The notes under the pieces were generated by a model. It did no database searches. It saw only the letters and a program-made list of their open reading frames with translations, and was not told where the DNA came from. From a virus (taxonomy: Duplodnaviria > Caudoviricetes), in the IMG/VR virus record IMGVR_UViG_3300028591_000126, positions 1 through 64,000 of that record: a stretch of DNA of 64,000 nt. One strand, given 5' to 3'. Both the position numbers and the translations under genes were made by a program. Positions 10,117 to 60,489 of the stretch are shown piece after piece. Each line of letters opens with the position of its first letter. Positions within the stretch are counted from its first letter, which is position 1.

Positions 10117-10121
10117 AAATT

Positions 10122-18827: not shown

Positions 18828-19583
18828 CTATTTTTCTTCTTTCTTGTCTTTTCTATAAATTTTTTTATATAGACCTTCATCATCATAGTGAGTATGATAT
18901 TTTAAAGGATTAAATAATCTTCAAAATAATAAAGGCTTATTTAATGCTACTTTTTTAGTTTTTATAAAACCTAATATTCTAAATGGTAAGTAAGTTACAA
19001 TATCATTTACATCACCAAAGTTATAAATCTCTTTTGAACAACTTCTTAGATATTTTCTAATCTTTCTTCTATTAAAAATATTTGTTTTAAATGGGTTAAC
19101 AGATCCGTAAGTAATTAAATGTGAACGTATTCCATACTGATAGTTTAAATCTTGAGCACATAACATTGCTTGACCAGAACCTAAAGACCAACCTACTATT
19201 TCTATTTCTGCTTTAGGATGTCTTTGTAATAAATACATTACTTCATTTCTTACTTGATGCTTCATTGCTTTATACATTGTTGCTCAACCATTATGAACTC
19301 TTAATGTTATTTTTTTATCATGTCATCTAAATGTATCATAATATTTTTCAATGAACATAAAGTTAACAAATCAATCTTTTTTGCCATTTGTTTCTTGGAA
19401 ATTTACTTGAATAACATTTCTGTTTGGTTCATAGTGCACTTCATAATTAGCATGACATTGAATTCCTTTATATCAATAAGTAATATCTTTATATTTTATT
19501 TCAAATCTTGCTAATCCAGTATCATTGTAATCATTAGAAGTATCAATAAAATATTGACTATATCTTAATTTTTTATAGCTCAT
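18828..19583 (-). CDS. Class 3 lipase / alpha-beta hydrolase, 251 aa with 5 TGA read as Trp
   Basis: D*FVNF, RVHNG*, GWSLG nucleophile elbow, DIVTYLP and terminal YHTHY; TGA at 19473, 19371, 19323, 19284 and 18921. Confidence 0.85.
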
Positions 19584-19704
19584 TATTGTCAAAACCTCCT
19601 AATAAAGTAGCTTAAATTTAAAAATAAACTTTATATAATTTAGACAATAATTTTAACTGTAAAAAAGAAAAGCTTAGAATAGCTTACTACTCTAAGCAAT
19701 ATGG

Positions 19705-20499
19705 TTAGTTATCTTTCTTTTCTTTAGATTTTTTAGGCTTAGCTTTTACATTTTTCTTTGTTTCTGATGTTTGTTCAGCCTTAGGTTGTTCAACTTCTAG
19801 CTTTTCTTCTGTATTTGCTTCATTAACTAGTATATTTAGTTTTTCTAAATCAACTCTACCATCTTTAGTCATGGCTTGCTTTAATAATGATACATCATAA
19901 CCAAAAGCAGTTGCTTGTAAAAGAAGATCATTTTTATCATCTTCAGTTGTAACAAAATCAATCTCATGATCAACATAAAGAGTTTTCTCAGCTGCTATAT
20001 CAATAGCATGTGCAATAATTGTATATGGATTCTTTTCTTTATATATTAAAGCTGTTTCAATTACACCTAGTGCAATATCAGCTCCAGAACCAATAGCTTC
20101 ATATTCTTCAACTTCACTTACAGATAAATCTTGACAAATTTGCCAGCATCTATCCTTATAAGCTATAAAGAAATCATTTGGTAAATAAAATGGATGACCT
20201 GGATCTTCTGTTATAACACCGTGCATCTTTAATGTTTCATATAAAGTTCTTGGTAATTGTAAATGAATAAAGTCTTCATCTAATTGATCTTTACCAAATC
20301 CAGCTGCATCTAACAAGCCTCTAATATATTGAATAACTTGCGCACCTCTTGCTAAGCCAACTGAACCAATACAACAATTTTTATATTCAGCTCTCCATAC
20401 CTTAGTTGCAGTGTGTTGTTTATTATTCCAACCAGATGCTTGTTTATCTGCTCCTAATATAAATCTATTTTTGTGCTTTATCGCTACTACTAGTGACAA
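19705..20499 (-). CDS. Ntn-hydrolase / proteasome beta-like peptidase
   Basis: TTG start after AAGGAG gives (M)SLVVAI...GADKQ...K; AIGSG motif. Confidence 0.65.
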   Translation of the reverse strand: MSLVVAIKHKNRFILGADKQASGWNNKQHTATKVWRAEYKNCCIGSVGLARGAQVIQYIRGLLDAAGFGKDQLDEDFIHLQLPRTLYETLKMHGVITEDPGHPFYLPNDFFIAYKDRCWQICQDLSVSEVEEYEAIGSGADIALGVIETALIYKEKNPYTIIAHAIDIAAEKTLYVDHEIDFVTTEDDKNDLLLQATAFGYDVSLLKQAMTKDGRVDLEKLNILVNEANTEEKLEVEQPKAEQTSETKKNVKAKPKKSKEKKDN

Positions 20500-20592
20500 T
20501 ATAATCAACTCCTTTAAAAATTATCATATAACTATACAATAATTTTAAAGCTGTTTTAATTATTATTTAAAATTATTTGTCAATATAGAAAA

Positions 20593-21519
20593 TTATTTTT
20601 TATCAGTATTATATTTATTAAGCTTATCTGCACATGCAGCTGTTTTTGATCTTTCTGATTTAACTAATTTTACATAGCCAAATAAAGGATCTGTCATTAA
20701 AGCCGCTTTTAAGCTGTCAAGCCCTTTAGAGTCTCTAAATATTTTACCATCTACTTGTGACATATCACCATCAAATCAAACTTCAGAACCTTCTGCTGCT
20801 CTTGCTATAATTAGCTGAATATGTGATGTTAATAAATTTTCTGCTTCTGAACACATTATAATTGCATTATCAATATTTCTACCTCTAATAGATTGTAATG
20901 GCTCTATAATTAGTTGCTCATTGTTTAGCATACACTCAACAGCTGCTTTTCCACAATGGTCAACAAATGGTCCAACATAGTCCATTAGCTTTTCATTTTT
21001 ATCACCTGGTAATGCACCTAAATCTGGAGTGCCTGCAACACGAACATTATTTCTAATCCAAACAATCCTATCAAAAACATTATGCTCTAATGCCTCAAGT
21101 GCCGCTGTAACTAAAAGCATTGTTTTGCCAACACCCCAAGAACCTTCTATAAGTTTTATAGTAATGTCCCTATTGTGTAACAAGTTTATTGCACAAACTT
21201 GCTCATCATTTCTTGCAACTATTTCGGTACTCTTAGCTGATGATTTTCTACTTCTAAAAGAAATACTATCTCGGCCAAATTTTTTAAGTATATTATCTTG
21301 CATAATATACTGAGCTACTAGTCTGTTCTTACCTGCATCATCTGTAGAATAAACTAATAAATACTCATTTTCAATAAGATCAGGAATCTTAACATTTGGA
21401 AAAGCTACAGCAAATTTATCTAAGTCTATATTTCCCTGAAATGTACTTAATGCTGCTCACTCTTCAATTGTTGGAGCTCATTTCTTCCAGCCTGTGTAAG
21501 TATTATTCTTTTCTTCCAT
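20593..21519 (-). CDS. phoH: PhoH-family ATPase, 308 aa with 3 TGA read as Trp
   Basis: GSWGVGKT, LGALPGD, IRGRNI, SEAENL, GSEV*FDGDMSQVD and ERS; TGA at 21478, 21457 and 20776. Confidence 0.88.
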
Positions 21520-21818
21520 AAAAGCACTTCCTTAACTTCAAATTTTAATTATTTAATTTATTTAATTTAGCACTTTTTTAGCTATATCTAACACACTGCA
21601 ATAATAGTTATAGTCATTAAAATTAGCCCAATAACGATTCCGATTTTAATGGCTAGATTATTTTGCTTTACATCATTTAAAGACAAATTAGCAGCCTCTA
21701 AAGCCTTTCTAATTGGGCTTTTACCTAATCTAGCTTTATATACTTTAACCTTTTTACACATAAAATCACCTTCTTATTTTAAATACAATAAAAAAAAGAA
21801 TATTTTTAAAATATTCTT

Positions 21819-22103
21819 TTAAATGATTTGGTAATATGCAGTATCTCAAAATAAAGTAAAATTGTTAATTTTAAAATATTTAGTATAATGTAAATTAACT
21901 GTAAACTTTAATTTGGTATTATTTAAAATATACTCACCACTGTAAACCTTAACTGTTATTTGACCATCTACTATGTTATTAACATATAAATTATTAAAGT
22001 ATACCCATACTTTATATTCATAATTATTAACATAAAATGGAAATTCAAATTTATCTAGCAGATAGGCATCAGCAACTTTAACATGCCCTAATAAGATATC
22101 CAT
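21819..22103 (-). CDS. Hypothetical protein (TGA at 21846 probably read through to TAA)
   Basis: GAGGAG RBS; GCTAAATTA motif at 22136-22144. Confidence 0.5.
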
Positions 22104-22168
22104 ACATCGCTCCTCTAAATATTAAATCAAGTATTTAATTTAGCAATGATGAATTACCTATATATATA

Positions 22169-24076
22169 TTATTTAATTAAATCATTAAAATCTATAATTC
22201 TATCAGATCCAAATTTTATTATGTCATAAAATTGTACTTCGTCTAAATAACCACCATTTGACATTTTATAAACAATTTCTAAAATATACTTTAATGAGCT
22301 TTTTGTACAGTTTTTTGCAGCTTGCCCATCATTCACTACAATAAACTCATAAATATCATTTGCCTTTGTTTTATAAACTTGAAAATCAATAGAAGTTAAT
22401 TTTAAATTTTTATGATTTTTAACAACACTTGATAACTCTCTTACAAAAGCTGTTTTTTCATTTAATTCACTGATATAATTCTTTGTAATAGTAGAGGTGT
22501 TCATACTCTTCTTCCTTTCCAATTTTCTAACATTTTGATTAAAAAAGTAGCCTAATTTTATCTGCTTTGGCTACTATTTTTTCTACATTTAAATATACAA
22601 TTTTTCTTACTATAAAATTTTACAAAAATAAATATAAACTTAAAAATACAAATATTGCAATAGTTAATAAAACATCAAATAAATTTATACGAAAATTAAC
22701 AGTTTTAGTTTCATCCCTTAATGCTGAAAATGCACAAAATAATAAAGCCAATGAAAAACTCCAACCAAGTAAAATTAATCCCCATAAAATCCAAGCAAAT
22801 ATTATCATAATTTAATTCTCCTCTCTTTTTTATTTAAGTGCTTTTAATAATTCAACTTCTAAGTTATCTACAGATTCTTTAATCTTCTTTTTATCTGCTT
22901 CATAAGTTTTTGCTAACTCTTTATACTTTATATCTAGTTGTTCCTCTTTAATAGTACCAATGTTTGTCATAATTTCTTTTTTGTTATCAAAAAATTTATG
23001 ATTAATAGCCATTTCTTTTGAATAAGAACATTTTTCATAATTATCTACAGAATAAATGCTATTAGAGTCTGTCAAAAAACCAACAATTAAATAAGGTTTA
23101 TCCGATAATAATTTCTTTTCACAATTAAAAGGCAATCTTGTTGCAATACTGATTACTCTAGCTTTCTTTATAGAAAAATCTTTGGCTACAGGATTAATAT
23201 ATAAATCAAATATATCTTGTCCTACTTTTAAGTCTTCAAATTTAATCATTATTTATTACCTTCCTTTACTAAATAATCATATAATTCTGATTCATTATGA
23301 TAAGGTGCATTTTTATAGGCATATGAACTACTCTTACCTCTCTCCATATCATATAAGAAATATAATATATCATTATTAACATCATTCATTAATTTTTGAA
23401 TAAGTCTAATATATTCAGATGCATATTCATTAAATAACCAACAATCACAATAATTACCAGGACATAGGTTTTCTAATGCATGAACAAATTGTTCTTGTTT
23501 TTCTTCTTGCTTATATATAAAATTTAAAGCTCCAATAAATTCTTCTTTAGATAAAGAGATATTTTTTAATTTCTTTTCAATTATAGCACAATCTTCTAAA
23601 TATTGATCAGAGCTATTACTTGAGCCTCGATAATAAGCATTACCACCCATAAAACTTGGTGCAGTTTTAATTCTTTCTAATATTTCTAGTTCTTTAGACA
23701 TTTATATTATCTCCTTCTAATCTCTTTTTAAGTTCTAAAAAATAATCTAAATCATCTTTAAAAATATAATATTCTTTATTATTATATACTACACAATAAT
23801 TTTGTGCATCATAATCTGTAAACCACTCACTAAACTCTCTTTCTAATAGCTCTAATGTGTAAGTTAATAATTCTACAGTTGTCATAACTATTCCCCCTTA
23901 TCAAAGTTTACTTCTGCAAACCACACATAACCTTCTCTATCAACTGGTTGTAATTCTACATCTTTTAAACCAGTAAGAACATATCTTTTACAATCTAATA
24001 ATTCTTTCTTTGAAAGAAATGTTTTCATATGCACTACTTTATCACTTGTCATAACTAATAATGTATATTGTTTCAT
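22169..24076 (-). other. Cluster of small hypothetical phage ORFs
   Basis: Six tightly packed minus-strand ORFs in the track. Confidence 0.7.
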
Positions 24077-24154
24077 AATTTACTACTCCTTGTATTTTTC
24101 TATAATAATTATACAATAAAAAGAGCTACTTGTAAATAGCTCTTTGTTATTTTT

Positions 24155-24874
24155 TTAAGAATACGGATTAATATTAAATATTTTAATCTCCTGCGGTATA
24201 AAATCAAATCTATCACCACAAACAATTAAATGATGATCTGATTCAGTTATATACATCGAATTTGAATGGACATGCCCTGCAATATTAAAGAATACTGCAT
24301 TTGGATTCATATAAGAAACAGGTTCATGGCTTAATAAGAACCATTCTTTTAGTAGTATAGGATTTGGATAAACCTCTTTAAAACCAACTTTATGCCAAAA
24401 ATCTTTTACTTCGTCTGGTATAAAATGTGTACCGTCGTTAGAAGTATAACGCCAATCATGATTTCCACAAATCATAATTTTATTCTTACATTTAATTCTA
24501 TTACCTAATTCAATAATAGCTTCTTTAATTTCAGTTTTAACTTTATCAAATTTTGTTCCACAACCATATTGACAATAAGCAAAATCTCCTAAAAAATATA
24601 AAGTATCATTTTCTTTTACTTTTTTATTAATAGTATTTATTATCATATCATCATGAAACTTTAAACATTGTTCTATTAATTCTTTATCATTATCTAGTAA
24701 AGCTCGTGTATAAGTTTCAACTAATATATCAATCATTTCCTTTTTGGAACAATCAAACATAATTAAATTATTATTTACAATATATTCTGCTGTAAGCTGA
24801 ACTCGTCTTGGTTCATACTTTAATATATTAGGATGATGAAAATGAAAGTCAGATGAAAAATAAGTCTTACTCAT
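24155..24874 (-). CDS. Calcineurin-like metallophosphoesterase
   Basis: SDFH, LGD, GNHD, SHEP and GHVH motifs. Confidence 0.85.
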   Translation of the reverse strand: MSKTYFSSDFHFHHPNILKYEPRRVQLTAEYIVNNNLIMFDCSKKEMIDILVETYTRALLDNDKELIEQCLKFHDDMIINTINKKVKENDTLYFLGDFAYCQYGCGTKFDKVKTEIKEAIIELGNRIKCKNKIMICGNHDWRYTSNDGTHFIPDEVKDFWHKVGFKEVYPNPILLKEWFLLSHEPVSYMNPNAVFFNIAGHVHSNSMYITESDHHLIVCGDRFDFIPQEIKIFNINPYS

Positions 24875-25889
24875 TCTTCTTTACCTTTTTTGTTGATTTC
24901 TTTTCTTCTTTATTACTTTCAGTATATTTAACACTCTTAATATATTTGTCTAAAATTGAATAAGCATTATAATTATTACCAAGTGCCTTTTTAGCAACAG
25001 CTATAGCAATACCTTTTTCAATATCCCAGGTATCTTTTGGATCACATGTTACTTTAGTAGTTGATCCATCAACCCACTTGATAACAATTGTTCTTTTTTC
25101 TTCATTTGCATAAATATTTTCTACCCTCGGTGTTAAAATACCTGCATCTCTTCTTCTTGCATCTTCAAATACTCTATTAATACTTTCCATACTGTAATTC
25201 TCCTTTTCTTCTTTTTCCCATAAACCATATATATAATTTTCATACCATTTATTATATTCATCATAATCATTATTTAGATTATTATAAATTCTCTCTGCAC
25301 CATCTTTGACTATATTACCAAGTATTTCATAATCAATTTGAGAATTAATATCTCGGTGTTTAAATTTACTTTTTATTTCATTATATAATTCATTACTTAT
25401 TAATTCATTACTTTCATTGGTTTCTTGACAGTTTATACCTAGAACATATTTAACTAATTTAACTCTTTGATCTATATCAAAATCTTTCCAATTATAATCT
25501 ATTACCTTATCAAAACTATCTAATTCTTTACAAAAGTTATCATATGTATAATCTTTTACAATTTCAGGATATAACTTGCTCATATAATCATTAAAATGCT
25601 TTTCATTACTATAACTTATTGTTACTTTAGAATGTATTAACTTTTTTATTTTTTTGTAATCATCTTCATTGTCTGAAACAATATGATAATAACTTTCACT
25701 CTCTACACCTATGTCATTTCTATATTTAAGATATAAAAATATAGTATTAATTCTTAAAAGACCCATATTAGCATTTACTACTGTGTTATATACAACAGTA
25801 TTTTTAAACTCTTCATAATCACATATTGTTGTGAAACTTTTTGTGAAACCTTCTTCTTCCATTGAAAATTTTTCTTTAATAAAAATCAT
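24867..25889 (-). CDS. Hypothetical protein with a common phage C-terminal domain
   Basis: TIVIKWVDGSTTKVTC...DIEKGIAIAVAKK. Confidence 0.65.
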   Translation of the reverse strand: MIFIKEKFSMEEEGFTKSFTTICDYEEFKNTVVYNTVVNANMGLLRINTIFLYLKYRNDIGVESESYYHIVSDNEDDYKKIKKLIHSKVTISYSNEKHFNDYMSKLYPEIVKDYTYDNFCKELDSFDKVIDYNWKDFDIDQRVKLVKYVLGINCQETNESNELISNELYNEIKSKFKHRDINSQIDYEILGNIVKDGAERIYNNLNNDYDEYNKWYENYIYGLWEKEEKENYSMESINRVFEDARRRDAGILTPRVENIYANEEKRTIVIKWVDGSTTKVTCDPKDTWDIEKGIAIAVAKKALGNNYNAYSILDKYIKSVKYTESNKEEKKSTKKVKKNE

Positions 25890-25902
25890 TAACTAATCAC
25901 CT

Positions 25903-26349
25903 CTACTCACTCTTTACCTCAATGAATATTGGAGTTATAACCTGCTTGTGAAATTTAATAAACACTTCGTGCTTACCAAACATTTTAATATTGCTCATTG
26001 ATAGTTGCTTTGCTTCGATACTTGAATAAGGCTCATAAAGTTTATTTATTTCAGCTAAAACCTCTTTCTTAGTTACTGCTTTATTTGTGGATCCATCTGG
26101 CATTGGTTTTCTATAAAAGGTAAACACTTTGCCTCTTAACTCTTCATCTCTACGCATGCATAATAATAAGAAATCGTTGGCTTCATCCTGAGCTCTATCA
26201 ATATCTCTTTGCCTCATAGCAAGATTTAATTCTGTTGCTAAAGCAGCTTTACCTTGAGCAATTAAAAAATTACCATAACCATTTGCAACATCTATAATAT
26301 CTAATTCTTTACCTTTTCCCTTAATATCTTGTTGTAAAATAATCTTCAT
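25903..26349 (-). CDS. rplI: Ribosomal protein bL9 (phage-encoded)
   Basis: MKIILQQDIKGKGKELDIIDVANGYGNFLIAQGKA N-domain, helical linker, IKMFGKHEVFIKFH C-domain; 148 aa. Confidence 0.9.
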   Translation of the reverse strand: MKIILQQDIKGKGKELDIIDVANGYGNFLIAQGKAALATELNLAMRQRDIDRAQDEANDFLLLCMRRDEELRGKVFTFYRKPMPDGSTNKAVTKKEVLAEINKLYEPYSSIEAKQLSMSNIKMFGKHEVFIKFHKQVITPIFIEVKSE

Positions 26350-26357
26350 AATATCAC

Positions 26358-26708: not shown

Positions 26709-26776
26709 ATAATCACCTCACTATAATTATTATACTACAAAAAAGAAGGTTTGTAAATACCTTCTATAATATTTTT

Positions 26777-27628: not shown

Positions 27629-27675
27629 ACTAAAACCTCCATATATTTATAATACAATATAAAAAAAGAAGAACT

Positions 27676-28182
27676 TTATTGTTCTTCTAATTTTCATCCA
27701 CATTTTAAATAATTTTTTAAATTATCTATGAATACTTCTCTTGTTTTACCATCTTTACAAATAATAACCCAATTACTTGGATTATTAATTCTTTTGACTC
27801 TTTTAGTATTTTTAGAAGTATAATGTTTCTTTTTATTTTCTTCTATCTGTGCAATCTGTCTTAACTCATAAGCTTCAGCATCAGTTCTATACGCTTCTTT
27901 AATATCATTATCCCTGCCACCAATTGATTGATTATAACCAATTCTTGGATCAGTTGAATGATAATAGTTTATTCATTTCTGTTCTGCCAAATCTAATTCT
28001 TCCTGTGACTCACATTTCTGAATTAATTCAACAATAAAATTTCTTTGACCAAACTTTAAAATAGCTCCAGTTATAAGTGTGCCACTACCCTTATAGCTAG
28101 GAGTAAATTTTCTAGATTTATGCTGTCCTATATAAATATACCCATTAACTGTATTAGTTGTCTTGTAGATATAACCATACAT
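27676..28182 (-). CDS. GIY-YIG homing-type endonuclease, 168 aa with 2 TGA read as Trp
   Basis: YIYKTTN..YIGQH..YKGSG..EQK*INYY..GYN..GG and terminal YLKCG*KL; TGA at 27973 and 27694. Confidence 0.82.
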
Positions 28183-28184
28183 AA

Positions 28185-28562: not shown

Positions 28563-28629
28563 AGTACTTAGACTCCTTAACTTATTATTAATTAATTTAG
28601 CAAAAAGAAAAAGAACTTAAAAAAGTCCT

Positions 28630-29196: not shown

Positions 29197-29238
29197 AACT
29201 AACTACCTCATATATAATAATATACAATAATTTATTTA

Positions 29239-29577: not shown

Positions 29578-29583
29578 ATACTC

Positions 29584-32295: not shown

Positions 32296-33981
32296 TTATT
32301 TAAAATGTATTTTTAAAAAATTAATTATATCTTTAATAATAATATCAATAGTACTTTTTGCTTCAAAAATATTATTTCTACCACCGTCTATAATTATAGC
32401 AGCTCGGTAAATAATATCCTTTCAACTAGGAACTGTTGAATAATCAAAAGTACTTACTGGCGGAATTCAAATATATATGTAAGATTTTGCTAAGCTAGAC
32501 ATATCTAGATTAAGCTTAGAGCTTAAATTTACTTTTTCCTTAAATTCATTTAAATTAAGTTTAATACTTATATTGTTGTAGCTACTGTTATTATAGCTGT
32601 ATAATGTGCATTGAACAGACTCAACAACATCCTTTTTAGCATAACTATTATCCCTAGCTAAATTACTATTGAAAAATTGTCCAAGAGTTGCTATTGCATT
32701 AAGAACTGCCAATCTTGAATAAAAACGCTGAGTTAAACAAGATGCTAAAATAGATTCTGGCATCTTTTTAATCATAGCTTCTCCTTCAGGAGTTGGCTTG
32801 TAATGATCACCATTATTAAAATAAAGAGTAAAAATTTCAGAAAGTATTAGACTATTAGAAGGTGTAAATGTAAAATCATCAAAATTAACAGAATATTTAT
32901 TACAGAATGCTTGTACTGTAGCATTATTTAATTTTTGATATTGAGATGAGCTTGCTATATTTGTTTTAATCTGAACTAAAAGCCTATGTGCTATATCATC
33001 TCATTCATCATTTATCTGCTGGCTTATTACCCCACTAGCTCTTAAATTTGCTAATTGTTGCTTTAAATTAGCTACTCTAGTACTCTTAAAACCACGCTTA
33101 TCTATTTCTGCTAACATTTCTGCAGCTTTTATTAGAGCAACACCAATTTTTGTTTTATTATAAATATTTATTAATATTTCTGTACAATCTATTAAATCCT
33201 TGAGTCCGATAACTGATAAATTTAAAAATAACTCATTATTTATTAATTTTCGCATTTGCTCTTCAGATACATATTCTTCTGTTAATTGATTATACTCTAA
33301 ATTTTCATTAGCTTTATTTGAATATATGCCTAATATATATTTAACAATATCTTTTGTTAGATTATTTGGTGTGTTGATAAATTGTTTTGAGTCTTTCTGA
33401 TCAATAAATGATACATTACCTTTATAATTAGCAGTTTTTCATGTTGATTTAAAATCTAAAAAATTATCTATATTTGGTATTATTATCTCTATTGATATAA
33501 TAGCATCTTTATTTACAGTACTACCTAATTTTGGTGCGACTAAAAGATATCTAATTGTACCTGGATACACTCTTATTGAGCCTGGAGCAATAACACCCTT
33601 ATAGTTATCAACAAAAAACTTTTTAATTGTAGCCATTATGTTATAAGCAGCAAGTCTTGATAAAAATTGTTCTGCTTCAATACCCGCAAGTTCATCTATA
33701 TTATACTTTAAAAATCTTGAATCTAAGCAGCGCCAGTCACCATTAACTTTATCAAACATACGTAAAAGCAAAATCTCAGGATGACTATTATCTATATATG
33801 TAAATAGTTGTTGATGGTTATCCTTGACCTCATTCATAAAGTCACATACTTCTTTTGTTTTTATAAGGTTATTAAGGTCATTAGCCATCATGGTACCTAG
33901 TAACATTTCTTTTGCTTTTATATAGCTTTGAATTGCAATATCATTAATAGTAGCTTGGTCTTTTATATTTAAGCTTTGCAT
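32296..33981 (-). CDS. Hypothetical 561-aa two-repeat protein with 4 TGA read as Trp
   Basis: Track ORFs 33439, 33001 and 32467 share one frame and are separated only by TGA (33439, 33001, 32467, 32422); ends TAA. Confidence 0.8.
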
Positions 33982-35374: not shown

Positions 35375-35476
35375 ATCAAAATGTAATTTGTTTAATTACA
35401 TTTTAATTTAGCAAATATAACTAACAAATAATTTTTAATAATTTTGCAAAAATTTATGACACAACTGAAGTAATGT

Positions 35477-36463
35477 CTATTCTTTTCACAAATTATAAAA
35501 ATATTTAACTATTTTTTTAGCCAATTCGTCAGGTGTGCCTTCTAACTGAATATCGTTTGCCTTAGTAGTAACTTCTACTCTTTGCTTTATAGCTCTCCAG
35601 CTCTCTATAGCATTACCATTAAATATACCAGTAAGCTCAATACTAGGGAAGAAACCTACAAATCTAACTTGCTCAAATTCTGCTGGTATACTAGCAAGTG
35701 TTTTTTTATTGGCTGGAAGCAACTTTTTGCACACTGCTGATAAATCCATAGTCATTTGAATAGTTGCTGCATCTAAAAATACATCATTTGTAATAGTGCC
35801 GCCTTGTTGTTCAAAAAAAGATTTAACTGTTAATATAATATTAATTAATGCAAGTCTTGCTAAATAAATCTCTAATACTGCATAACATATCTTAGAGTGT
35901 GTAGTTGAATCTTCTAGCATCCTTTTAACTTTATTATTAAGTGGCTCAAAAGAACCAGAATAACGCCTAAAAATATCTATTAATAGTTGTGATTTATTGG
36001 CACAGTCCAACCACTGTGCTGGTGAGTTATCTATAGCTTCTCTAGCTTTTATATTTAATAATTTCCTAAGTGCATCATTATATCCTTTAACTGTACTTAA
36101 ATAATTTATATCTTTATAAAGTTTATCAGCTAAGGCATCTCAATTAGGAACTACATTTTGTTGAGGTTGTTTTTGAGCTGGTGATTTAATTCCTGCATTA
36201 GCTTTTACATTTTGTAATTGATTCTTAAAATTAGTAGCTACAGTAAAAATGCCTCTGTCAAATAACTCATCTATAAGTAATTTTATTTTTGAAAGAGCTA
36301 CAACATTATGTGTTTTATTAAAAATATCAAATAAAATATTAATATTCCCAATTATTTTATTAGTATCTGCTAGCTTATAAGCGAAGCCACGTGTACCGGC
36401 AATTCACATTGCCATCTTTTGTTGTTGTGTTAATTCTTCAAATAGGATCTTGCTGTATCTCAT
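35477..36463 (-). CDS. Hypothetical 328-aa protein with 3 TGA read as Trp; paralog of 32296-33981
   Basis: ATG at 36463 with GGAGG RBS, in frame with track ORF 35486..36010; only TGA codons interrupt it. Confidence 0.78.
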
Positions 36464-45826: not shown

Positions 45827-48800
45827 TTTATTTTACCAACTTTCCAATTCAATTACACCATCATTAATTTCAATGCTCTGTATTTCAGAATGGCCATAAT
45901 AACAGTCATCAGTCTTAGGAACTTCAACTTCTAAATCACCATATTCTTTTATCAATTTTTGTAATCTTTCTATTAAATCACTTGCTTTCATTCTTCCACC
46001 TCAATTTCTTGGTCTTTACCTAAATAAAAATCAACCTTATCTTTATTTCTATCTTCATTAATTCTCATAAATCTTACATCATACCAATAACAAGCAATAC
46101 AATCTGGAACAAAACCTGTTTTATGTATATAATAGTTTTCAAGTTCCTCAACAGAACAATCTCTAACTTTCTTTTTCATATTATTCACCTTCTATATACA
46201 ATTCAAAATGATGTCCATCAACAACTCTGGCATAAAATGAGTAAATTTTCTTAGGTCCATATTTAGATTCAATATAATGTAAACCTGATAATCCTGTATG
46301 TTTTGTAAGCCAAACCTTAGTAATGCCACACAAATTATAATCTCCATTATCATAACCATTATCAAAAATAACATTACCATTCCATACTATTTTTCTAGCA
46401 TCAAAAATGCGTTTTATAACATTAAATGTTATTTGACTAGCATTAGTTCTTTTCATCCTACTCACTCCTGTCAGACTTTAACCACCAAGTTATTCCATAC
46501 TCTTCTATTTTATATCTTGCTATAAAATCATACTCATATATTTCTATTTCATTTGTTTTATGATTATATAGAATAGTAGAATCTGTATAATATTCATGAA
46601 ATACATCTCCATACTCATTTTTCCAGTATACTGGTTTCTTATACATTTCTTCTATTAATTCAAATATATCTTCATATTTACCTATAATTTGAACTAATCT
46701 TATTCCATCTTCCCAACCATAAACTTCTTTATCTGGTTTTAATTTATAAAATTCACCATCTTTTTCAGTTATTCTATTCATAGTATATTTACCATCCTTT
46801 TTCACTATTATTATACAATAAAAAGAACTCTGTGTAAATATGTTTTTTAATATTTTTTAATATTTTATAATTTTAATATTTTATAAAAATAAAAGGACTC
46901 TAAATCAAGTCCTATTTTAAAGTTCTTTAATTTGCATAGGTATGAAAAACCTTTTTGAGGTCTTATCCTTAATCATAGAAATAACTTCTATAAAAGAATC
47001 TGATTTAACATGAAATAGTTCTATATGATTCTTCATGATACAACCTTCTTCATGCCATTTTATTTTATCCTTTTCATCCATAGCTAAAATATAAAAATCT
47101 TTCATACTAACTACCTTCTTTCTTTATTTTCTAAATACCTCTTTAACAAATCAAATTCTTCTTGTTTTTTAAAGTTAATATGAATTGAACATTCAGTATC
47201 TTTACTTTCAATAACAATACTTAATTGGACTTTTTCTTGATTATTTTCAGAATAAGTAAAACTATCATCTTTAAAAGATAAATGTTCCTTAATAATCTCA
47301 AGTACCTTTTCTTGCTCTTGTGATTTGATTAATGCCTGCTTTATTTCAGTGAACATTTCATTTTTAGTTATGCCATTGTATGCAGGTAATGGCGGATAAG
47401 TCGCTATCATCATATTGAAATTATTTTCTTTAATATGTTCTAAATATTCTAATACTTTACTGGGATCAGTATTATCTATTTGTCCTAGCCTTTGTAATGC
47501 TTGTTCTATTTTTGTGTAAGCATTTCTTACTTCCCAATAGTCATCTTTATTAGTAAATTCTAGTTTATCTACTATTTTATATAATACTTCTAACTCTTTT
47601 GACATACTTATTCACCTTTATTATTTAAATATTTTTCTACTTTATCAACATCTAGCAAATTCATTAGATGTAGCCAAGTAACTAAATTGACTTTATCATT
47701 TTCATCTACACTATTTTCTTTACACCATTTTTCAAACGATTTAACTAATTTATGTCTCTTACTATAAAACAATAATTTCATTTTATTTACTCTTATCCTT
47801 AAATGCTATTTTTTTAAAAGCATCTAACTCAGCGTGTAAAATAGCATTATCATGTTTTAATTTTTCAATTTTTGCTTTATCTTTTTGTGCTTGAAGTAAG
47901 GCTTGTTCTATTATGTTAACAAATTTACGAAATTCATTATTTAATGTACTGCCAACAAATCTAACCTCATTTAAGTCAACTTCTTTTACTGCACCATCTT
48001 CACTTTTAAATGGTAAAGAACTTATTTCTATACCTTTAAATTTATTAAGTTCTTCTAATGCTTCACTAGGTTTTAAATTGTCTATTAAATTAAGTCTTGT
48101 TAAAGCATCATTTACTAATTTACAATCATCTTCAAAATTTAAACAATCATAAGAACCATCATTATCACATTCAGTATGTAATGTAATTCTATTAAATGCT
48201 TCTAAATATTCTTTACTCATTTTCAAGTTCCTCCTTTGTTAATGCCCACCAGTTACCATAATCTTTTAAAGGAAAATCATAATAAAGTCCTCTTGAATTT
48301 ACATATAACCTATTGTTAAGAGCTTCATAGTCTAAATCATCAAGAAATTTCTCTTTAACTATCCCATATGATTCTTTAATATATACATACTTCTGCTCAT
48401 TTGCTTTTTTACAAATCATAATTGCGTTGTCTATTGCTTCTAGGCGTTGTAAGGCTTTCTTAATAGCTAGAAAATCGTTATATGTTCCTTCTAATGAATT
48501 AGTGTAGCCATATACTTTCATTATGCTTTCTAATGCTTCTAATTCTTTACTCATTGGGTTTCACCTCATTGTTTATTTCATTATTTATTATGTTTTCTTC
48601 TAATGTTTTTAAAGCATAATAAGTCATTCTAACTACTTCATTAAATTCTTCTCTAGTTATTTTAGTTACTAGAACACTAAAGTCTATATTACAATGTCCG
48701 TCTTTTTGAGTTATAAAAAATAAATCTTTATTCATTATTTACACCTCTCTTTTGAAGTCTTTCCAGTAATTTTAAAAAGTATTTCTTCTAATATTTCTTC

Positions 48801-51690: not shown

Positions 51691-54600
51691 TATTCCTTAC
51701 CTCTCAGTATTTCAAATATGACTTGCAACGCTTGTTCTGTTGTATCAAATGATTTTGGACACCAATAGCAAATTTCATCTAATTCTGTAATACTACCAAT
51801 GTTTCCTCCTCTATTTTGATAATCACGATAAGTTTCTTTTAATGGATAGTATTTATTATCTTTTAAAGATTTATCAACCCATCTAGCAACATATCTTGCT
51901 TTATCTGCACAACAAGAACGTCCTTCTTCTCTCTGAATATAATTTTCTAAAATATATTCAAATATACTTATCCTATTTTCAAAAAGGTCATTATACACAT
52001 CTAAATCAGATATATCACAGTTTTCTAATATAGCATCAATTACTGTTTTAATATCATCTGGTTTAACATCATCTATTTTCATATTACTCACCTTTATTTT
52101 TTAATTTGTTAATAAATTCATTATAACTTTTCAATTAAATCGTCTATAGCATCCTGGACTTCATCAACACCTTCAAGTTCACCATCATAAGGGTCTGCAG
52201 AAATGTCGTCTACTAACAAATAAATATTATTTAAATCATTAATTATATCTTCATGACTAACAGATTCATAATCATCAATAGTAACTCCAGATTGATTCTT
52301 ATTAATTACTATATTAAAATCATAAGGACAATTCTCCTCTATAAACTTTTTAAGCTTATCTTCAAAATTAAATGTTAATTTTAATGCCATACTTAATTTT
52401 CCTCCTCACTTATTTTATCACAATAAACTGTAAATGTAACAACTAATGCATCATATTCACTATAGAAACCTGTAATTCTATATTTCATATCATCTCTAAA
52501 TACTTTAAATTTAAAGTAACCATTAAATTTTCTATTTAAATAATTTAAATGATTATTTATAAATTCATCATAATTTAAATCTACTTTACTCCAATCAAAT
52601 TCAGACACTTTTATAGGTTTATCTAAATCAAATGATGCAGAATAATCAAAACAAGGTAATCCTTTTTTAATTGTTCTTTTTGCAAGTTTGAATAATTTTT
52701 TATTTGTAGGATTTTTATCTTCATAACCTATATATAATTTTTTAATTTCTTTTTCTAACTTTAATTCTTTATCCATAGTTTATTCCTCCATATTATTAAT
52801 GTTTAACAAAATAAACATCACCACTATGTTGATAATCGGAACTGTTATTAGTATAAATAAAATACGTACCTTTTAGTTTAAATAATGTATTTGCATTGCT
52901 ACCAAAACAATCATAATCTAAAACCTCTGCATTATGAAACTCTGCAAAATCTTTATAATGAGGTTTTAGGATATAATTCTTCTTACAATACTCTTCAAAT
53001 TCTTTTTTACTTTCAAATTCAAAGACTTCATATTCTCCATCACCTACGTCATTATTATAATGAATAAAATTTCTTTTACCTATTTTAACAACTACACATC
53101 CACCATCACAACTGTATGTTCCTTGCTTCATAGTTTATTCCTCCTCTAATATATCATAACTAAATTCAAACCCTTTACTACGATAAGAATTATCTCTATT
53201 TATAATTTTAAATAAAAAGTCATTTGCTTCTTCATAAGTCTTAAATGCAGTCTTTCTAACTAACTCACATAAGCTAGGCATACTTACTACACTTGTTATG
53301 TAATAATAACCATTATCCCTTTTATTATAAACTGTATGTTTTTTAATTATGTATTTCACAGTTGTTTTCCTCCATATATAAAATAATACAATTAACTTTT
53401 TCTATATTTATATTATAACCCAGAAAAAAAGAAATGTAAATACTTTTATCTACATTTCTTTATTATTTTTTATTTCTTTTTTATATTAACATTTTTATTA
53501 TATGTTTTTTGTTTACCTTTATTATTTTCTTTTGCTATCATATACTGAGTAAATGATCTTACAGCTTCTTTACATTCATCACTGCCAGCATAGCTGCAAC
53601 CTCCTCCTTAAAAAATTTGAAAAAATAGATACTTTGTTTTTGGCTTATTACTAATTAAATCTTTTATTCTTAGTAAAAGTTCACTTTCAAAATTAATATC
53701 TTTCATAAAGTTATCATAATTAAAAATATATGTATTAAAATGAAAATCCATATCACCATTGTCTTCAACAAAAGTTTCACATAGATTGCATAATGTATTT
53801 GCATCTCTAATACTATTTGGTATATTAGAAGATAATGAAATAAAGTCATACCATACATAATCATTATTTATCGAATATTCATCATAATTATTATCTGTTG
53901 GTAATATCTTTGTTTTACTTCCTATTATTTTTAAATCTAAACCCATTTAATTTACCTCCTTTTGATAGTTTACCCATTTACGAACTGCTTTTATAGTAGG
54001 ACTTAATTTCTTTCTCTTATGATAAATTTTCTTTACAGCATTATCCTTTCCATAGCCCCATCTCCACCAGTTCGACCAGTATGAACGTTTTGGATCACAC
54101 ATAAAGTCTATGCTTGGATCAACACCATATCCATATAGAACTTCATACTTATTACCTTTGTATTCAAACTTAGCTAAGTATACATTATCATCTGTTTTAT
54201 TTGTAATTCGCTTTACTACAAATTTTCCAATTCTATCTAGATTATAAACTTTTGGTTTTTTATGTGTATCAAACCAATCGTATGTATCTACATCAACTCC
54301 ATGTTTCTTTGCTACTTCTTCAACATTAGCCATGATTCCATCATACACTAACATGAATCCTTCTTTATAGAATCCTATCATGAAGTCTTTATCCCCGATG
54401 AGAGCCATGTAACTGCCTGCCATAGAAACCTTCTCTGGATGAATACCTTCAACAATAGTTTTATATTCACCAGTCTTCTCATCACATTCTGTTCTAAATG
54501 AGTAGCGTTGAACCATAGTCTCATCTACATTAGTATCTTTTTCTTTTAGCTCCCATGTTCCATCTGGATTATCAATCTTATCATATTCACAAACATATTT

Positions 54601-55355
54601 TAAGTCTGTATAGTTCTGGAATAATCCTCCTTTTTTCTTAGTAATGATTACTCCATTCTTTTTTACTACTGCTCCATAATCTGCCATTGCCATAGTTTAT
54701 TCCTCCTTCTCATCTGCCAATCTTATTGCATTTAATATAATTACAGCTTCTGTATTATCATTCATTTTTTTAACATGATCAATAATAGTAATTATATTAT
54801 CTTCAGTTAATTCTTTATTTAGCCCTGGCACTAATGCATGACCTAAAATATGTTGATCATATTCATAAGGTTTATTACCAATTTCAGCTGTTGCTTTTTT
54901 ATTTTGTTGATAAGTAATTAAATATTCATATGTCCTCATTGATTAAATTCCTTTCTACTTTTCTAATTCTATATAATACATACTTCTATCTTCTATTTCA
55001 AATTTAAACCAATAATTATTTCCGTTATTTAAATTTTTATTCCAATAAGTTATATCTTTTCCAACAGTTGCTTGTTCATAAGAACTTAACTCATCCCAAT
55101 GCTCTGCCATAAAGTTTAACTTCAAATATTCTTCTTCACTTATATGATTATTAGGTCCAACTATTGTACAAATAAAACACATCATAGAACATAATATTAT
55201 TACGGTTGCGATAGGAGATAATATTTCTAACTCTTTTAAAACTGCAATTATTATTACTCCTATTCCTAATAAAAGTGTTATTAATCCTACTATTAATGAA
55301 ATCATATTTTAAAACCTCCTAAATACTAATTGATTGATAATGATCACAAATACAA

Positions 55356-55700
55356 CTAACTAATGAAAATATTAGTGCTATCGCTAAAACGTTTTATTCT
55401 ATCAGTAATATCTGTAAACCCAAAATGATCACATAAATAATACTTAGAAGTTTTATTATCAAAATCTCTATATTCTATAATATCACCAACACTCATTGAA
55501 TGCCAAGCAAATCCTTCAGGATGATCGATATTAAATATTCTAAATAGTTCTTCATTATATAATTCAGGTTTAGTATTCTCAGGAACCTTGCCTTGATAAG
55601 TAGCAACATAGTTTTCTATATTAACTTCAGTTAACTCATCTGCCCCTTTAAACATATCTTCACTATTATGTGGTAATTGTCTTAAATAATATCTGATCAT
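55356..55700 (-). CDS. YodL-domain protein
   Basis: LFRIFNIDHPEGFAWHSMSVGDII...YLCDHFGF. Confidence 0.7.
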   Translation of the reverse strand: MIRYYLRQLPHNSEDMFKGADELTEVNIENYVATYQGKVPENTKPELYNEELFRIFNIDHPEGFAWHSMSVGDIIEYRDFDNKTSKYYLCDHFGFTDITDRIKRFSDSTNIFIS

Positions 55701-55980
55701 CTTTTATGCCTCCTTAACATATTTATATCCAAGTCCATAACTACACCAAGGATATTTTCCTTCTTTTGAAAGTTGTGTATTTAATTGTTTAACCTCATTA
55801 GCTATTTTATTATAATCATAACTTTCACTATCTCTTTGAGGAAATGTTCCTTCACAATTATTAAATGTAATATAATATAATTTCTTCATAACTTTCCAGC
55901 TCCTTCTATTTACAATTATATTATACCATATAAAAAAAGAAATGTAAATAATTATTTTACATTCCTTTAAAATTTTTTTA

Positions 55981-57306
55981 TTATTGTAAGCTCTTTATGC
56001 TAATAGTCTCATAGCTATTTTGTAAATATTTTTTAACATACTCGTTATCAGTATAAACTGTTAATGCTTGACATCCATAGAATGCTGATCTATCTATATT
56101 TGTAACACTATTTGGAATTGTTATGCTTGTTAATGATTTACAATTTGCGAATGCTTGTGGTCCTATTCTTTTAACACTATTTCCTATTATAACATTTGTT
56201 AATGAACTACATTCAAAGAATGCCCCTAATCCTATATTAGTTACACTATTTGGTATTGTTATAGTTTTTAATGATTTACAATTTACGAATGCATACTCAT
56301 CTATATTTCTTACGCCAGTTCCCATATTTATGCTTGTTAATGAAGTACAAGTTGAGAATGCAAAATTTCCTATATCTCTTACCTTATCCGGTATTGTTAT
56401 ACTTGTCAATAACTCACAGCCTTCAAATACACCATATCCCATACTTATAACGCTGTCTGGGATTGTGACGCTTGTTAATTTACTACATGAGTTAAATGCT
56501 CTATTTCCTATAATTGTAACACCGGCAGGAATAACTACTTTTTCAATTTCTGGATACACAGCAACTAAAGTCTTATCAGTTATTACAAGACCATTTACTG
56601 CAGCAAGTTTATCACAGATAATCTCTTCACTAATTAAGTTAATAGGAAGCTCATTAATAGCAGCATAATCCAATTCATCCTTATCATTATATAATGCAAA
56701 ATTTGTAGATTTAATATAAGTTTTTTCATCCATAAACTTTTGTGGATTTAAGACCTTAGGATATACTGTCAATGCATATTTTCCATACATTGTTTTACTA
56801 TCTAGAAAATAATAAAACTTTATTCCCATACCCATATATTCATCCCAATGCTTTTTAGCATCTTCCTTACTAGGAGCATATTCAGGATGACCGTAGTGTT
56901 TATATCTACCTGCTGTGCACCAACCTGTATTAACACCAAGATCCATACTTGCAATATAATCTAAAGGTTGATAAACTTTATAACCATTACTTTCACCCAA
57001 GTATTTATATTCTCCTCTTACTTCTTTATCCTTACCTTGAACTATTCTTTTTCTTTGGGAGTCTTTTTCATTATTATAAAGTGAAGCTAATAAATTTATT
57101 AACTCCTCTTGTTCCATATGTTTACAATAATAAGTTAAATCGGTAGAAAGACCTTTACTCTTTAGTCTATCTTTAGCTTTTAAAAAATTATTATATGTAT
57201 CCATTCCAAACTTGTTAATGAATCTTTGTTGATCTTCTTTTGATTCTACTAACAATTCTGGTAGGTATTCTTCTATAAGTGATTCTGTGTAATCTGTAAT
57301 TTTCAT
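55981..57306 (-). CDS. BspA-type leucine-rich repeat protein with phage N-terminal domain
   Basis: About seven 23-aa repeats (LTSITIPNSVTNIGxxAFxxC); N-terminal YTESLIEEY; GWCTA motif. Confidence 0.85.
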   Translation of the reverse strand: MKITDYTESLIEEYLPELLVESKEDQQRFINKFGMDTYNNFLKAKDRLKSKGLSTDLTYYCKHMEQEELINLLASLYNNEKDSQRKRIVQGKDKEVRGEYKYLGESNGYKVYQPLDYIASMDLGVNTGWCTAGRYKHYGHPEYAPSKEDAKKHWDEYMGMGIKFYYFLDSKTMYGKYALTVYPKVLNPQKFMDEKTYIKSTNFALYNDKDELDYAAINELPINLISEEIICDKLAAVNGLVITDKTLVAVYPEIEKVVIPAGVTIIGNRAFNSCSKLTSVTIPDSVISMGYGVFEGCELLTSITIPDKVRDIGNFAFSTCTSLTSINMGTGVRNIDEYAFVNCKSLKTITIPNSVTNIGLGAFFECSSLTNVIIGNSVKRIGPQAFANCKSLTSITIPNSVTNIDRSAFYGCQALTVYTDNEYVKKYLQNSYETISIKSLQ

Positions 57307-57397
57307 AGCTTATTTACCCCACAGTTTATAACTATATAATTTAGCAATAAAAAAACTTGTGAGCATTTTTACCCACAAGTATTTATTTTATTTATAA

Positions 57398-57748
57398 CTA
57401 ATCTTCTAATTTAATATTAGTTAATACATAACTCCAAGATGTTCCACAATGAGTAACACCCCAAACATAAACATCTAACTCATCATCGTAGTAAACAATC
57501 TCATCAGTATATTCTTTTAATAAACGGTATCCGCCATCATCTATAATAAAATATTGATATACATCAATAAAATAATCATCTTCTTCATCATAGTCAGTAC
57601 CATTAACTAATTCTAAAGTTTCACCAATTCTATTAGCCATAGCATTACATAGAACTGCATCAAAACATTTTGCTAATGTTCCATAATCTACATAACCTTT
57701 TTCTTTAGCATAATCACTTACTTCAAAACCCATAAATGTAGTTTTCAT
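57398..57748 (-). CDS. Hypothetical protein
   Basis: ORF with SigA-type promoter; VYQYFII..YVWGVTHCGTSW. Confidence 0.7.
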   Translation of the reverse strand: MKTTFMGFEVSDYAKEKGYVDYGTLAKCFDAVLCNAMANRIGETLELVNGTDYDEEDDYFIDVYQYFIIDDGGYRLLKEYTDEIVYYDDELDVYVWGVTHCGTSWSYVLTNIKLED

Positions 57749-58623
57749 ATTTGATATCCTCTCTTTCTTACATTTATATTATATCATAATATTATTAAAA
57801 TGTAAATAGTTATTTTAAAATATTTTAAACATATTGGATGGGGCGGCATCCCAATTCCCGGATACTCTGCAGCTAGAAAGTTACTAGTACCTATTCGCTG
57901 TCAGCATAAACTTTCCCCCGGGGGGTGACATCCCAGATGAATCCGATGTTAAAAAAGTTACTAAAAAATTAGTAACATTCCGGATTACCTCTTAATTAGA
58001 TTCCTTCTGATTCATCTTCCATGTATGATTCATATTCATCTTCGATTCTATTCTTGATCATTACTGGAACACTAAAAATATTTATGTCATAATCATATGG
58101 ATTTTTACCGGGAGTTTTTGTAACCTCGCCTAATAAAATATCGTTACCATAAATTTCTTCTAGTGTTAATCCCTTAATGCCTAGAACCAATTCTTTATAC
58201 CAAACTATTGATCCTAATGCTAAATCTTTAATTCTCATATTATTATGCCACCTTACTTACTGCATAGCTATTATCTTTTATACTAAAATCACAATTGTAT
58301 TTTGTATCCTCTGAAAACTCTGTTATACAGTTACACTCATATATTGCAGCCTTCATCCAATCTGCTGAATTAGCAAAATGTTCTTCTTTTGCTTTTAGTG
58401 CTTCTTCATATGTATCGAATGTCCAGAAATGAACTCTAACGCAAAAACGCTCAGGAAACTTATTAAACCATTCATCTAATAGTTCATCACTATAATACAT
58501 ACCGTCCTGTTCTTTTAAATCTCGTTTCATAACTTTAAGTAAATACATATATACATCACTCCTCTAAATTTATATACAATAAAAAAAGAGAAGCTATTAT
58601 AACTTCCCTTTTATTTTTTTTAA

Positions 58624-60489
58624 TTAGTCAGAAGAATCATATTCACTGTGATAAACTTCACGTACTGTTAATCCTAACTTAGCAAGGTTATCTGGAACAT
58701 TATTTTGTACAGTAACTGATTGTCCATTTCCAGGACCTGCATAGTTACTTGAATCTTTACCATGAACGCCTAATGCTGTTTTAAGCTTATCATCTATAGT
58801 AGGATTATAGGTAATAATCTCATCACTTGTTCCCCAGGCTCTACCTGAACTACCAGATATTGTACTAACTGCTATTACCTTTAGTTTATCAAAGTCAGGT
58901 AAATTATTATATGATATATCCTGATTATTATGTAACGGTTGACCTGCCTTAACCCTACAAGCTATTAAATTATCCTTACTATAATTGTTTGGATTTTGTT
59001 TCCAGCAAGTAAATATTATATCTTCTGTTTGTGGATCTAAGAAATATACACTATCATTTTTATTTAAATAATCTTGTAGTCCAAGTTTATTTAATGTATC
59101 CTGTATCTTCTTTGTATATTTTTCTGTTTTTAGTTTTGTTACTGCAGATTCAATCTGTCCTTCAATACCAGAATATCTTCCTACACCACCAAGCACTATG
59201 TTAATATCTTGCTCAGCATCTTTAAGATTATCTTCATTTAATGTAACTATTACATCACAACCTTTTAAATGTATTGTAGATCTAAAATTACCACCAACCT
59301 CAATAGTAAATGCATCATCAATACCATCTAATCCTGATAGTTCTAAATATTCTTTAACTAATTGTGGTTGAGTCTTAGTTAATTTATTTATAGCATTATA
59401 TAAAACAAATTCTGCTAATTCTTCTATTTCTTCTTTCTTTTGATTTTTAGCTTTTGTTTCATTTACAGTATTTCTGAAATCCTTAAACTGTGCAACCCAG
59501 AATTGTACTAAAGCTTTTTTTAATTCAGAATTATTACAATTTTTTATATCTCCATAAGATCCCTTAGATTTTAATTTACCTGTTTGACTATCAAATAAAT
59601 TCATAAGGTTTTCTGCTTGTAACTCAGAATCATATGCAGCATGGAATGCATCAGTGTCTATTAGCTTATTAGTATTTAACTCATTAAAGAACTGAGCTGC
59701 CTTAACCTGATCAATTTGTTCTGTTAGTGAATTACTAATATCATCTTGTATTTCTCTATTTCATTCATGCGCAAATATTCTATTCCAGTCAAAATACAAA
59801 CCATTATCTGCAGTAATCATATTTCAAGGAATTAACTTATCAGGTAAAGAAGGATTTATTTTATCTAATTCCACAGGTTCTTTGCCAGGATATTTTAAAT
59901 ATAAATCACCCTTAATTTGTTTATATAAAATTAAAGTATTATTTATAGGATTATAACCAGCAACATATTTTGCATTATGTGCAGGAGTATTTATTATATT
60001 CACACCAGGTTTACGTTCATTTGCTTTTAATGTTTTAACATCCAATGTTACATTATTACCTGATGGACCAACATACTCAAAGTCTGGAATTGATTCACCA
60101 GCACAACGTCTTAAATACTCATGTGACGGTAGTGCAGTATAATCATCATTATCTTTATATTTTTCGTCCGGTATAAAGTTAGTTTCAAACCTAAATACAT
60201 TATTAGCTAATAGCCAATGTTCTATTACATAGTTATTATAAAAAATACATATACGTGCTAAGCCACCAGCAGTTTTTTCACCTTTATATATACCTTGTTC
60301 TATATTAGCCAAGTTATGTAAAGTATTCCAACCTTCCATATCTCCTACAGGCGGTAATAATGATTTTCTGCCAGCATTAAAATAATAATTATTAAAATAT
60401 TTTTCTAATTCAGTATATGCTATAAAATCTTCTGTATTAACTTCATCAGTAATATATTCTTCTATTAAACTTTCAGTATATTGCTTCAT
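58624..60489 (-). CDS. Hypothetical 621-aa protein with 2 TGA read as Trp
   Basis: Track ORFs 59824..60489 and 58624..59604 are in frame and joined by LIP*NMIT..AHE*NREI..ENLMNLF with no TAA or TAG. Confidence 0.8.

Follow-up and report, generated by a model that had tools for sequence, protein, structure and literature searches.

Here we report that, in a subset of genes of a phage from the virus record IMGVR_UViG_3300028591_000126, TGA is a tryptophan codon, as comparison with homologous genes shows, and that the same DNA carries a likely decoder in the form of a tRNA-Trp(UCA) gene, which a group I intron conceals. The stretch analysed, which we call the window, is the first 64 kb (64,000 nucleotides) of this single 109,813-bp record. 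We consider it quite probable that the phage-borne, intron-split tRNA-Trp(UCA) reads UGA as Trp within a host that itself uses the standard code, and that the recoded genes are those expressed later, once this tRNA has accumulated. The record is linear according to IMG/VR and about 56% complete by CheckV, i.e. 44% of the genome is missing; its G+C content (GC) is ~27%, and the minus strand carries nearly all of the genes.

The original prediction, made from the letters of the window, named seven genes that are restored when TGA is read through. Each of these is split under translation table 11 and forms one open reading frame (ORF) under table 4, with the TGA counts that had been claimed. Moreover, all of the interruptions (20/20) are TGA, and TAA or TAG occurs in none of the seven genes. 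The small ORF at 21819-22103, which was said to gain a short tail, is lengthened by eight codons. The family names given to the lipase (Lipase_3), PhoH and TnpB are borne out by Pfam, and that of the GIY-YIG homing endonuclease by PHROGs. The genes concerned are as follows.

18828-19592, minus strand: class-3 lipase (Lipase_3); five in-frame TGA codons (first bases 19475, 19373, 19325, 19286 and 18923) and one TGG
20593-21519, minus strand: PhoH-like ATPase; three in-frame TGA codons (21480, 21459 and 20778)
21819-22103, minus strand: small ORF; TGA at codon 86 of 94, ambiguous between stop and Trp
27676-28182, minus strand: GIY-YIG homing endonuclease (phrog_314, E-value 8.6e-26); two in-frame TGA codons (27975 and 27696)
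32296-33981, minus strand: gene of 561 amino acids, function unassigned; four in-frame TGA codons
34161-35300, minus strand: IS605-family TnpB with Pfam OrfB_IS605, Cas12f1-like_TNB and HTH domains; one in-frame TGA codon (34394)
35477-36463, minus strand: gene of 328 amino acids, function unassigned; three in-frame TGA codons (36406, 36142 and 35488)
58624-60489, minus strand: orphan ORF of 621 amino acids, joined by two TGA codons (59826 and 59763)

The lipase is the most heavily recoded gene of the window. The two unassigned genes at 32296-33981 and 35477-36463 are weak paralogues (E-value 6.5e-4), and the TnpB gene sits between these two recoded neighbours. Several of the proteins have few or no known relatives: the 32296-33981 protein matched only itself among 5.8 billion proteins, the 21819-22103 ORF had no homologues among the related loci that were fetched, a PDB search with the GIY-YIG protein returned no match, and the homologue search with 58624-60489 found none beyond the protein itself. 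In this last gene, neither TAA nor TAG occurs in the 73 codons that link the two code-11 ORFs; the proposed fusion, the weakest of the seven, is suggested by this continuity of frame only.

The prediction further held that several TGA codons fall where the protein family has tryptophan, as several do. Lipase codons TGA74 and TGA103 correspond to an invariant W in 120 of 120 homologues; in the same alignment TGA90 lies in a W/Y/F column in which W is the most common residue, TGA224 in a column with F more frequent than W, and TGA40 in a variable column. In TnpB, TGA303 aligns with W in the solved TnpB chains 9yyg_A and 8h1j_A. In the homing endonuclease, TGA70 corresponds to W, Y or V in Staphylococcus phage endonucleases and TGA163 is uninformative. 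Alignment of 35477-36463 with its homologues P0123-P0125 places TGA20 opposite W, TGA108 opposite an invariant W and TGA326 opposite F. PhoH TGA248 is matched by V/I or by TGA itself: the PhoH genes of relatives contain TGA at codon 14, in two of five cases at codon 248, and also at places where the window phage has TGG. The lipases of related phages can be translated only with TGA as W; in the relatives L006-L008 TGA is kept at the same codons, and swaps between TGG and TGA are also seen. These TGA positions are conserved between relatives at 52–76% protein identity.

A codon comparison for the tail module, made against 35 related IMG/VR loci, yielded 420 aligned cells opposite TGA. Trp codons fill 57.9% of these, compared with 61.3% of the cells opposite phage TGG and 0.3% of those opposite all other codons; the homologue columns are thus enriched for Trp, and because its share of Trp codons is so close to that of TGG, TGA behaves like TGG. 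The homologue columns, the interchange of TGA and TGG in relatives and the lipases that need TGA = W all bear out the assignment of TGA to Trp. Coding density points the same way. Measured by greedy gene coverage, it rises from 0.791 under code 11 to 0.871 under code 4 over the whole record; for the phage part of the window the two figures are 0.795 and 0.849, and at 64–110 kb they are 0.710 and 0.861. A control in which TAG was read through gave much smaller gains, with a density of only 0.75 at 64–110 kb. Greedy gene coverage was used in place of stop-to-stop ORF totals in six frames, which did not separate host from phage (ratio ~1.3 for both).

The distribution of TGA across the record is far from even. 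The gene-class-specific use that had been proposed is evident when internal TGA is expressed as a fraction of Trp codons, block by block (heterogeneity chi2 = 109, p = 1e-22).

5.2-18.8 kb: TGA fraction 0
18.8-36.5 kb: TGA fraction 0.30
36.5-58.6 kb, small ORFs: TGA fraction 0.01
58.6-82.5 kb: TGA fraction 0.03
82.5-109.8 kb, tail module: TGA fraction 0.53

The densest recoding is therefore found in the tail module at 82–110 kb, beyond the window, a point that the original prediction understated. This block has genes with 12 and 11 TGA codons; the tail sheath, the fibres and neighbouring tail genes are recoded, and the baseplate hub gene is without TGA. Over the phage overall the ratio of TGG to TGA is ~4:1. 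The small-ORF arrays, which had been said to use TGG, do so with 96 TGG versus one TGA at 36.5–58.6 kb. Three features bear on how TGA is deployed outside the recoded genes and on how those genes may be controlled.

36491-58623, minus strand: 55 genes, most of them small, in which TGA is avoided
45988-45991, minus strand: ATGA overlap, its ATG closely preceded by a GAGGTG ribosome-binding site
35404-35412, minus strand: copy of the motif GCTAAATTA, one of 11 in the window

The 36491-58623 block is presumed to be the early region. Within it, reading through the ATGA overlap at 45988 would add only four residues; the arrangement looks like a coupled stop-start, and the TGA there may be a true stop, in line with what had been suggested. 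TGA is rare as a stop in the phage: among 181 genes, at most nine carry a TGA within their final 12 codons, compared with 6.2 expected by chance, and the excess is not significant.

The other copies of GCTAAATTA in the window lie at 6931, 12768, 16411, 16931, 21563, 22136, 28593, 37475, 57337 and 60519. The gene strand bears 20 copies where 1.7 would be expected, and the other strand three; they are mostly located 28–52 nt ahead of a start codon, and the motif is probably a promoter specific to the phage. TGA genes are found closer behind it than other genes are (median distance downstream 1.9 kb vs 5.3 kb, p = 1e-4), and the copy at 12768 precedes the tRNA operon.

The identity of the host can be approached through the beginning of the window, where the phage is joined to a piece of bacterial chromosome.

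1-5234, minus strand: host chromosome joined to phage, encoding PriA, an ECF transporter S component and pyruvate formate-lyase (PFL) according to Pfam

This region is 97.7% identical at the nucleotide level to contig L009 of a metagenome-assembled genome (MAG), with the match ending at ~5219, and it is syntenic with MAGs of the Anaeroplasmataceae/Acholeplasmatales. Its Trp codons are all TGG. The gene for release factor 2 (RF2), prfB, was found in four of four host-lineage genomes, the nearest included (483–497 bits, cut-off 370). The W columns of 80 host PFL orthologues hold 542 TGG codons, no in-frame stop occurs across their 54,006 residues, and 16 of 170 long ORFs of the host lineage (~9%) end in TGA. 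The likely host thus probably reads UGA as a stop, i.e. it uses the standard code, and it is probably a standard-code bacterium of the Anaeroplasmataceae/Acholeplasmatales. Given a host lineage with RF2, TGA stops and Trp encoded by TGG only, the phage must therefore bring its own decoder. At the junction itself (~5220-5235) host chromosome meets T4-like phage, no integrase was seen, and the join may reflect either genuine integration or a chimeric assembly. We also noted that the PFL of this region has a truncated glycyl-radical domain.

The candidate for such a decoder stands next to a large array of tRNA genes.

9188-12492, minus strand: tRNA array of 26 tRNA genes and a tmRNA gene (ARAGORN, Rfam)
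8602-8902, minus strand: candidate tRNA-Trp(UCA); exon 1 at 8902-8870, group I intron at 8869-8644 (226 nt), exon 2 at 8643-8602

Searched with ARAGORN and Rfam, the array of 26 tRNAs contains neither a tRNA-Trp(CCA) nor a tRNA-Pro, and the candidate is the only Trp tRNA of the phage in the record. Its gene is split after U34 and encodes the CCA end. Among the junctions that give a 7-nt anticodon loop, one only combines U at −1 with a terminal G, and this one produces tRNA-Trp(UCA). The spliced product, of 75 nt and with the anticodon loop CUUCAAA, is called as tRNA-Trp(UCA) by ARAGORN with default settings, its minimum-free-energy fold is a cloverleaf, and its acceptor stem is AGGGGUC/GACCCCU with G73, in keeping with the bacterial Trp identity set. 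Taken together, these features of the locus suggest that the tRNA-Trp(UCA) at 8602-8902 is likely the decoder, hidden from standard tRNA finders by its intron. Run over the whole genome with its intron and low-score options, ARAGORN returned hundreds of false calls and labelled the split gene a tRNA-Lys, with incorrect borders.

An earlier pattern scan for split tRNAs, using GCGGACTT...ACGCAAACCCGC, gave only chance matches in GC-rich coding DNA. A scan of IMG/VR by the intron core motifs recovered 58 loci with a shared core, and in 12 other contigs among these a tRNA-Trp(UCA) is split at the same place. The guide sequence lies just 5′ of P2 in the split copies, a position common to all, and the anticodon arm of the window tRNA, mismatch included, is conserved in L121 and L135. 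We scored 14 loci as carrying a split tRNA-Trp(UCA), two of them only probable; in 12 of the 14, coding density gains +0.10 to +0.35 under code 4, compared with at most 0.07 in loci with tRNA-Leu(UAA) introns. Two relatives reached via the neighbouring phosphoesterase gene, L192 and L193, have an intronless tRNA-Trp(CCA), which in L192 directly follows the tmRNA, in the syntenic slot; L193 is not recoded. Five further loci (L105, L118, L139, L147 and L150) share the intron core and show code-4 gains of +0.19 to +0.39; no split tRNA-Trp from these five passed our filter, and they may hold overlooked split-tRNA variants. The split tRNA-Trp(UCA) of L144 (IMGVR_UViG_3300028887_000154) carries in addition a long variable arm, and the loop of this arm, CCUCCAAAC, reproduces the anticodon loop found in a normal tRNA-Trp(CCA); the window tRNA lacks such an arm.

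A number of observations weigh against a decoder of this kind acting in a standard-code host. The Rfam model Intron_gpI scores 37.8 bits at the locus (E-value 3.6e-8 in a 501-nt search), under its gathering score of 50, and the P1 helix of the intron has a U-U mismatch beside the splice-site wobble pair, a mismatch present in most of the Trp-type copies. In the spliced tRNA the T-loop is odd, the D-loop lacks GG and A31 is mismatched with C39, and sigma-70-like sites around the tRNA region are no commoner than in shuffled sequence. The host assignment depends on a single contig junction, possibly an assembly chimera, and a search of the four host-lineage genomes turned up no phage DNA save for an 86-nt tmRNA match, so that integration is not confirmed. 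Families of release factor 1 (RF1) and tryptophanyl-tRNA synthetase (TrpRS) were not found in the 110-kb record, from which 44% of the genome is missing. Not all genes behind GCTAAATTA contain TGA; the helicase and PhoH do carry it, and a rule of 'late genes only' is therefore too simple. Finally, from the sequence we infer a tRNA that undergoes splicing, is aminoacylated with Trp and prevails over RF2, and a use of TGA that depends on when each gene is expressed.

Alternative accounts can be set against these data. The host itself might use code 4, as Mycoplasma and Spiroplasma do, in which event no suppressor would be needed and the uneven use of TGA would amount to codon bias. The very AT-rich genome, the mollicute-related origin of the attached host DNA and the dependence of the host link on that one junction would suit such an account, but we judge it very unlikely: RF2 is encoded in all four host-lineage genomes searched, 9% of long ORFs in that lineage end in TGA, and the 80 PFL orthologues never use TGA for Trp. 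The phage, for its part, maintains its ~4:1 overall preference for TGG, rising to 96:1 across the 22-kb small-ORF block, despite AT pressure; an excess of TGG over TGA is the opposite of the pattern in code-4 organisms. The relative L193, moreover, has a tRNA-Trp(CCA) and is unrecoded. Still less credible, to the point of being nearly negligible, is the notion that TGA encodes a residue other than Trp, be it selenocysteine or the Gly of code 25, or that the affected genes are pseudogenes or assembly errors. Some TGA codons do fall in variable columns (lipase codon 40 and several tail-gene sites). However, Gly, the residue expected under genetic code 25, stands opposite TGA in only 1.7% of cells, against the 57.9% held by Trp codons; the 20 interruptions in the window include no TAA or TAG; and the TGA positions persist in relatives whose proteins are 52–76% identical. 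The homologue columns and the conserved TGA positions thus exclude code 25, pseudogenes and sequencing errors.

A further account accepts TGA = Trp and dispenses with the locus at 8602-8902: either a leaky host tRNA-Trp(CCA) would read UGA or a suppressor would lie in the missing 44% of the genome, and the split tRNA would be a decaying relic. The unusual T and D loops, the A-C mismatch in the anticodon stem, the sub-threshold Rfam score of the intron and its imperfect P1 would fit with decay, and the ~56% completeness of the record leaves room for a suppressor elsewhere. Yet leaky reading could not bring genes with 11–12 TGA codons to useful levels, and a decaying tRNA would hardly keep its anticodon arm, mismatch and all, in L121 and L135, co-occur with TGA recoding in 12 other contigs, or be the only Trp tRNA beside an array of 26 tRNAs. 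We therefore regard this account as improbable and favour the split tRNA-Trp(UCA) as the decoder.

The preferred explanation builds on four points that the comparisons establish: TGA means Trp, the split tRNA is present and conserved, the host lineage has the standard code, and TGA is patchily distributed. The phage tRNA-Trp(UCA) would gain a working anticodon loop only once the group I intron between U34 and C35 had been removed. Genes needed before the suppressor builds up would keep TGG and avoid TGA, and in later-expressed genes TGG would be converted to TGA by AT-biased mutation; this later set would comprise the tail module, the lipase, PhoH, the two unassigned paralogues, the homing endonuclease and TnpB. 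Until the suppressor was present, host RF2 would presumably cut the products of TGA-bearing genes short. One may go further and suppose that the code change is wired as a timed switch and that intron spread created the suppressor, a joint proposal that we think unlikely. The sole UGA-decoding tRNA would then be the last gene of the tRNA cluster, possibly a single operon, which would be driven by the same promoter type (GCTAAATTA) as the TGA-bearing genes, and UGA decoding would begin only after self-splicing of the tRNA. Because a group I intron at 34/35 needs U34, an intron entering a phage tRNA-Trp(CCA) could itself have created the UCA suppressor and so seeded recoding; if true, recoding would have been seeded in the phage of a standard-code mollicute relative.

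Stop-codon recoding in phages is established, as the original prediction noted, and the whole pattern has a published precedent in gut phages (Borges et al., bioRxiv 10.1101/2021.08.26.457843). These authors described TGA-recoded phages of standard-code hosts that have standard-code close relatives and few TGA stops, with recoding concentrated in structural, lysis and homing-endonuclease genes; a suppressor tRNA was detected in just 35% of the TGA-recoded genomes, and the authors proposed that tRNAs of non-canonical form had been overlooked (bioRxiv 10.1101/2021.08.26.457843). The window phage resembles theirs, especially the Agate and Jade clades, in its described features. It shares with them TGA = Trp alongside a standard-code host, recoded structural genes and a recoded homing endonuclease, other blocks in standard code, rare TGA stops, standard-code close relatives, a genome size in the 100–200 kb range and a gut or rumen source. 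It differs in that PhoH and helicase also carry TGA, in that neither a lysis cassette nor RF1 nor TrpRS turned up in its 110 kb, in its apparent host, a wall-less Anaeroplasmataceae relative, and in its intron-split suppressor.

The intron itself resembles known group I introns of tRNA anticodon loops. It shares with them the insertion between U34 and position 35, the U at −1, the intron-terminal G, a guide sequence directly 5′ of P2 and the core motifs AGAGACUAGA and AAGAUAUAGUC, and the same scan recovered tRNA-Leu(UAA) introns. In contrast to those introns, it interrupts a phage opal suppressor, tRNA-Trp(UCA), and the P1 U-U mismatch is found in most Trp-type copies. The text of the paper on the known introns does not mention Trp, suppressors or phages, and in the literature searched we found no description of an intron-split opal suppressor. 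UGA = Trp and the anticodon of tRNA-Trp(UCA) are shared with code 4 of mollicutes and mitochondria, but those genomes are recoded throughout and have lost RF2, whereas here a subset of phage genes is affected and the host lineage keeps RF2.

The recoding itself, then, is not new; what is less ordinary is the host lineage, together with the hidden tRNA. A probable wall-less, standard-code host of the Anaeroplasmataceae is added to those of recoded phages, and a suppressor tRNA that seems 'missing' only because a group I intron hides it helps to explain the detection rate of about one-third (bioRxiv 10.1101/2021.08.26.457843). For annotation the consequences are practical: code 11 breaks at least 24 genes of the record, most of the tail module among them, so that the phage can be read only with the correct code.

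We take the record to be a portion of a large T4-like myovirus. Beyond the window, in the same record, there are genes for tail fibres, a tail sheath and a baseplate hub, and the relatives reached via the lipase gene include contigs of up to ~196 kb, one of which, 150 kb long, has genes for portal, prohead protease and Gp23 capsid proteins of the T4 type. Neither a terminase nor a lysis cassette was found within the 110-kb record, and megablast of a 14-kb phage query against the INPHARED phages gave no match. The tail sheath has only remote matches, to Bacillus phage SP-15 and an uncultured phage (26–29% identity over ~30% of the protein).

The surroundings of the tRNA array hold several other elements. 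Directly upstream of the array, at 12816-13436 on the minus strand, lies a full-length ROOL RNA, which scores 253 bits with the Rfam model RF03087 (gathering score 99). The tmRNA, at 9273-9635 on the minus strand, has the tag peptide ANNINMAAVAAMNAPRAYALA, and its 86-nt matching stretch is 80% identical to locus G004:C87 in the nearest host-lineage genome. Between the GCTAAATTA copy at 12768 and the first tRNA there are a terminator-like hairpin (12506-12528, minus strand) and a 42-codon ORF (12612-12740, minus strand), which may act as an attenuator of the tRNA operon. The stretch at 13885-15688 has a GC of 0.37, compared with ~0.27 generally, and no long ORF on the gene strand; inside it, at 15402-15485, there is a weak IMES-1 match (25.6 bits). 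Towards the end of the window, at 55981-57306 on the minus strand, a gene without TGA, downstream of a GCTAAATTA motif, encodes a BspA-type leucine-rich-repeat protein (LRR_5, E-value 2e-50).

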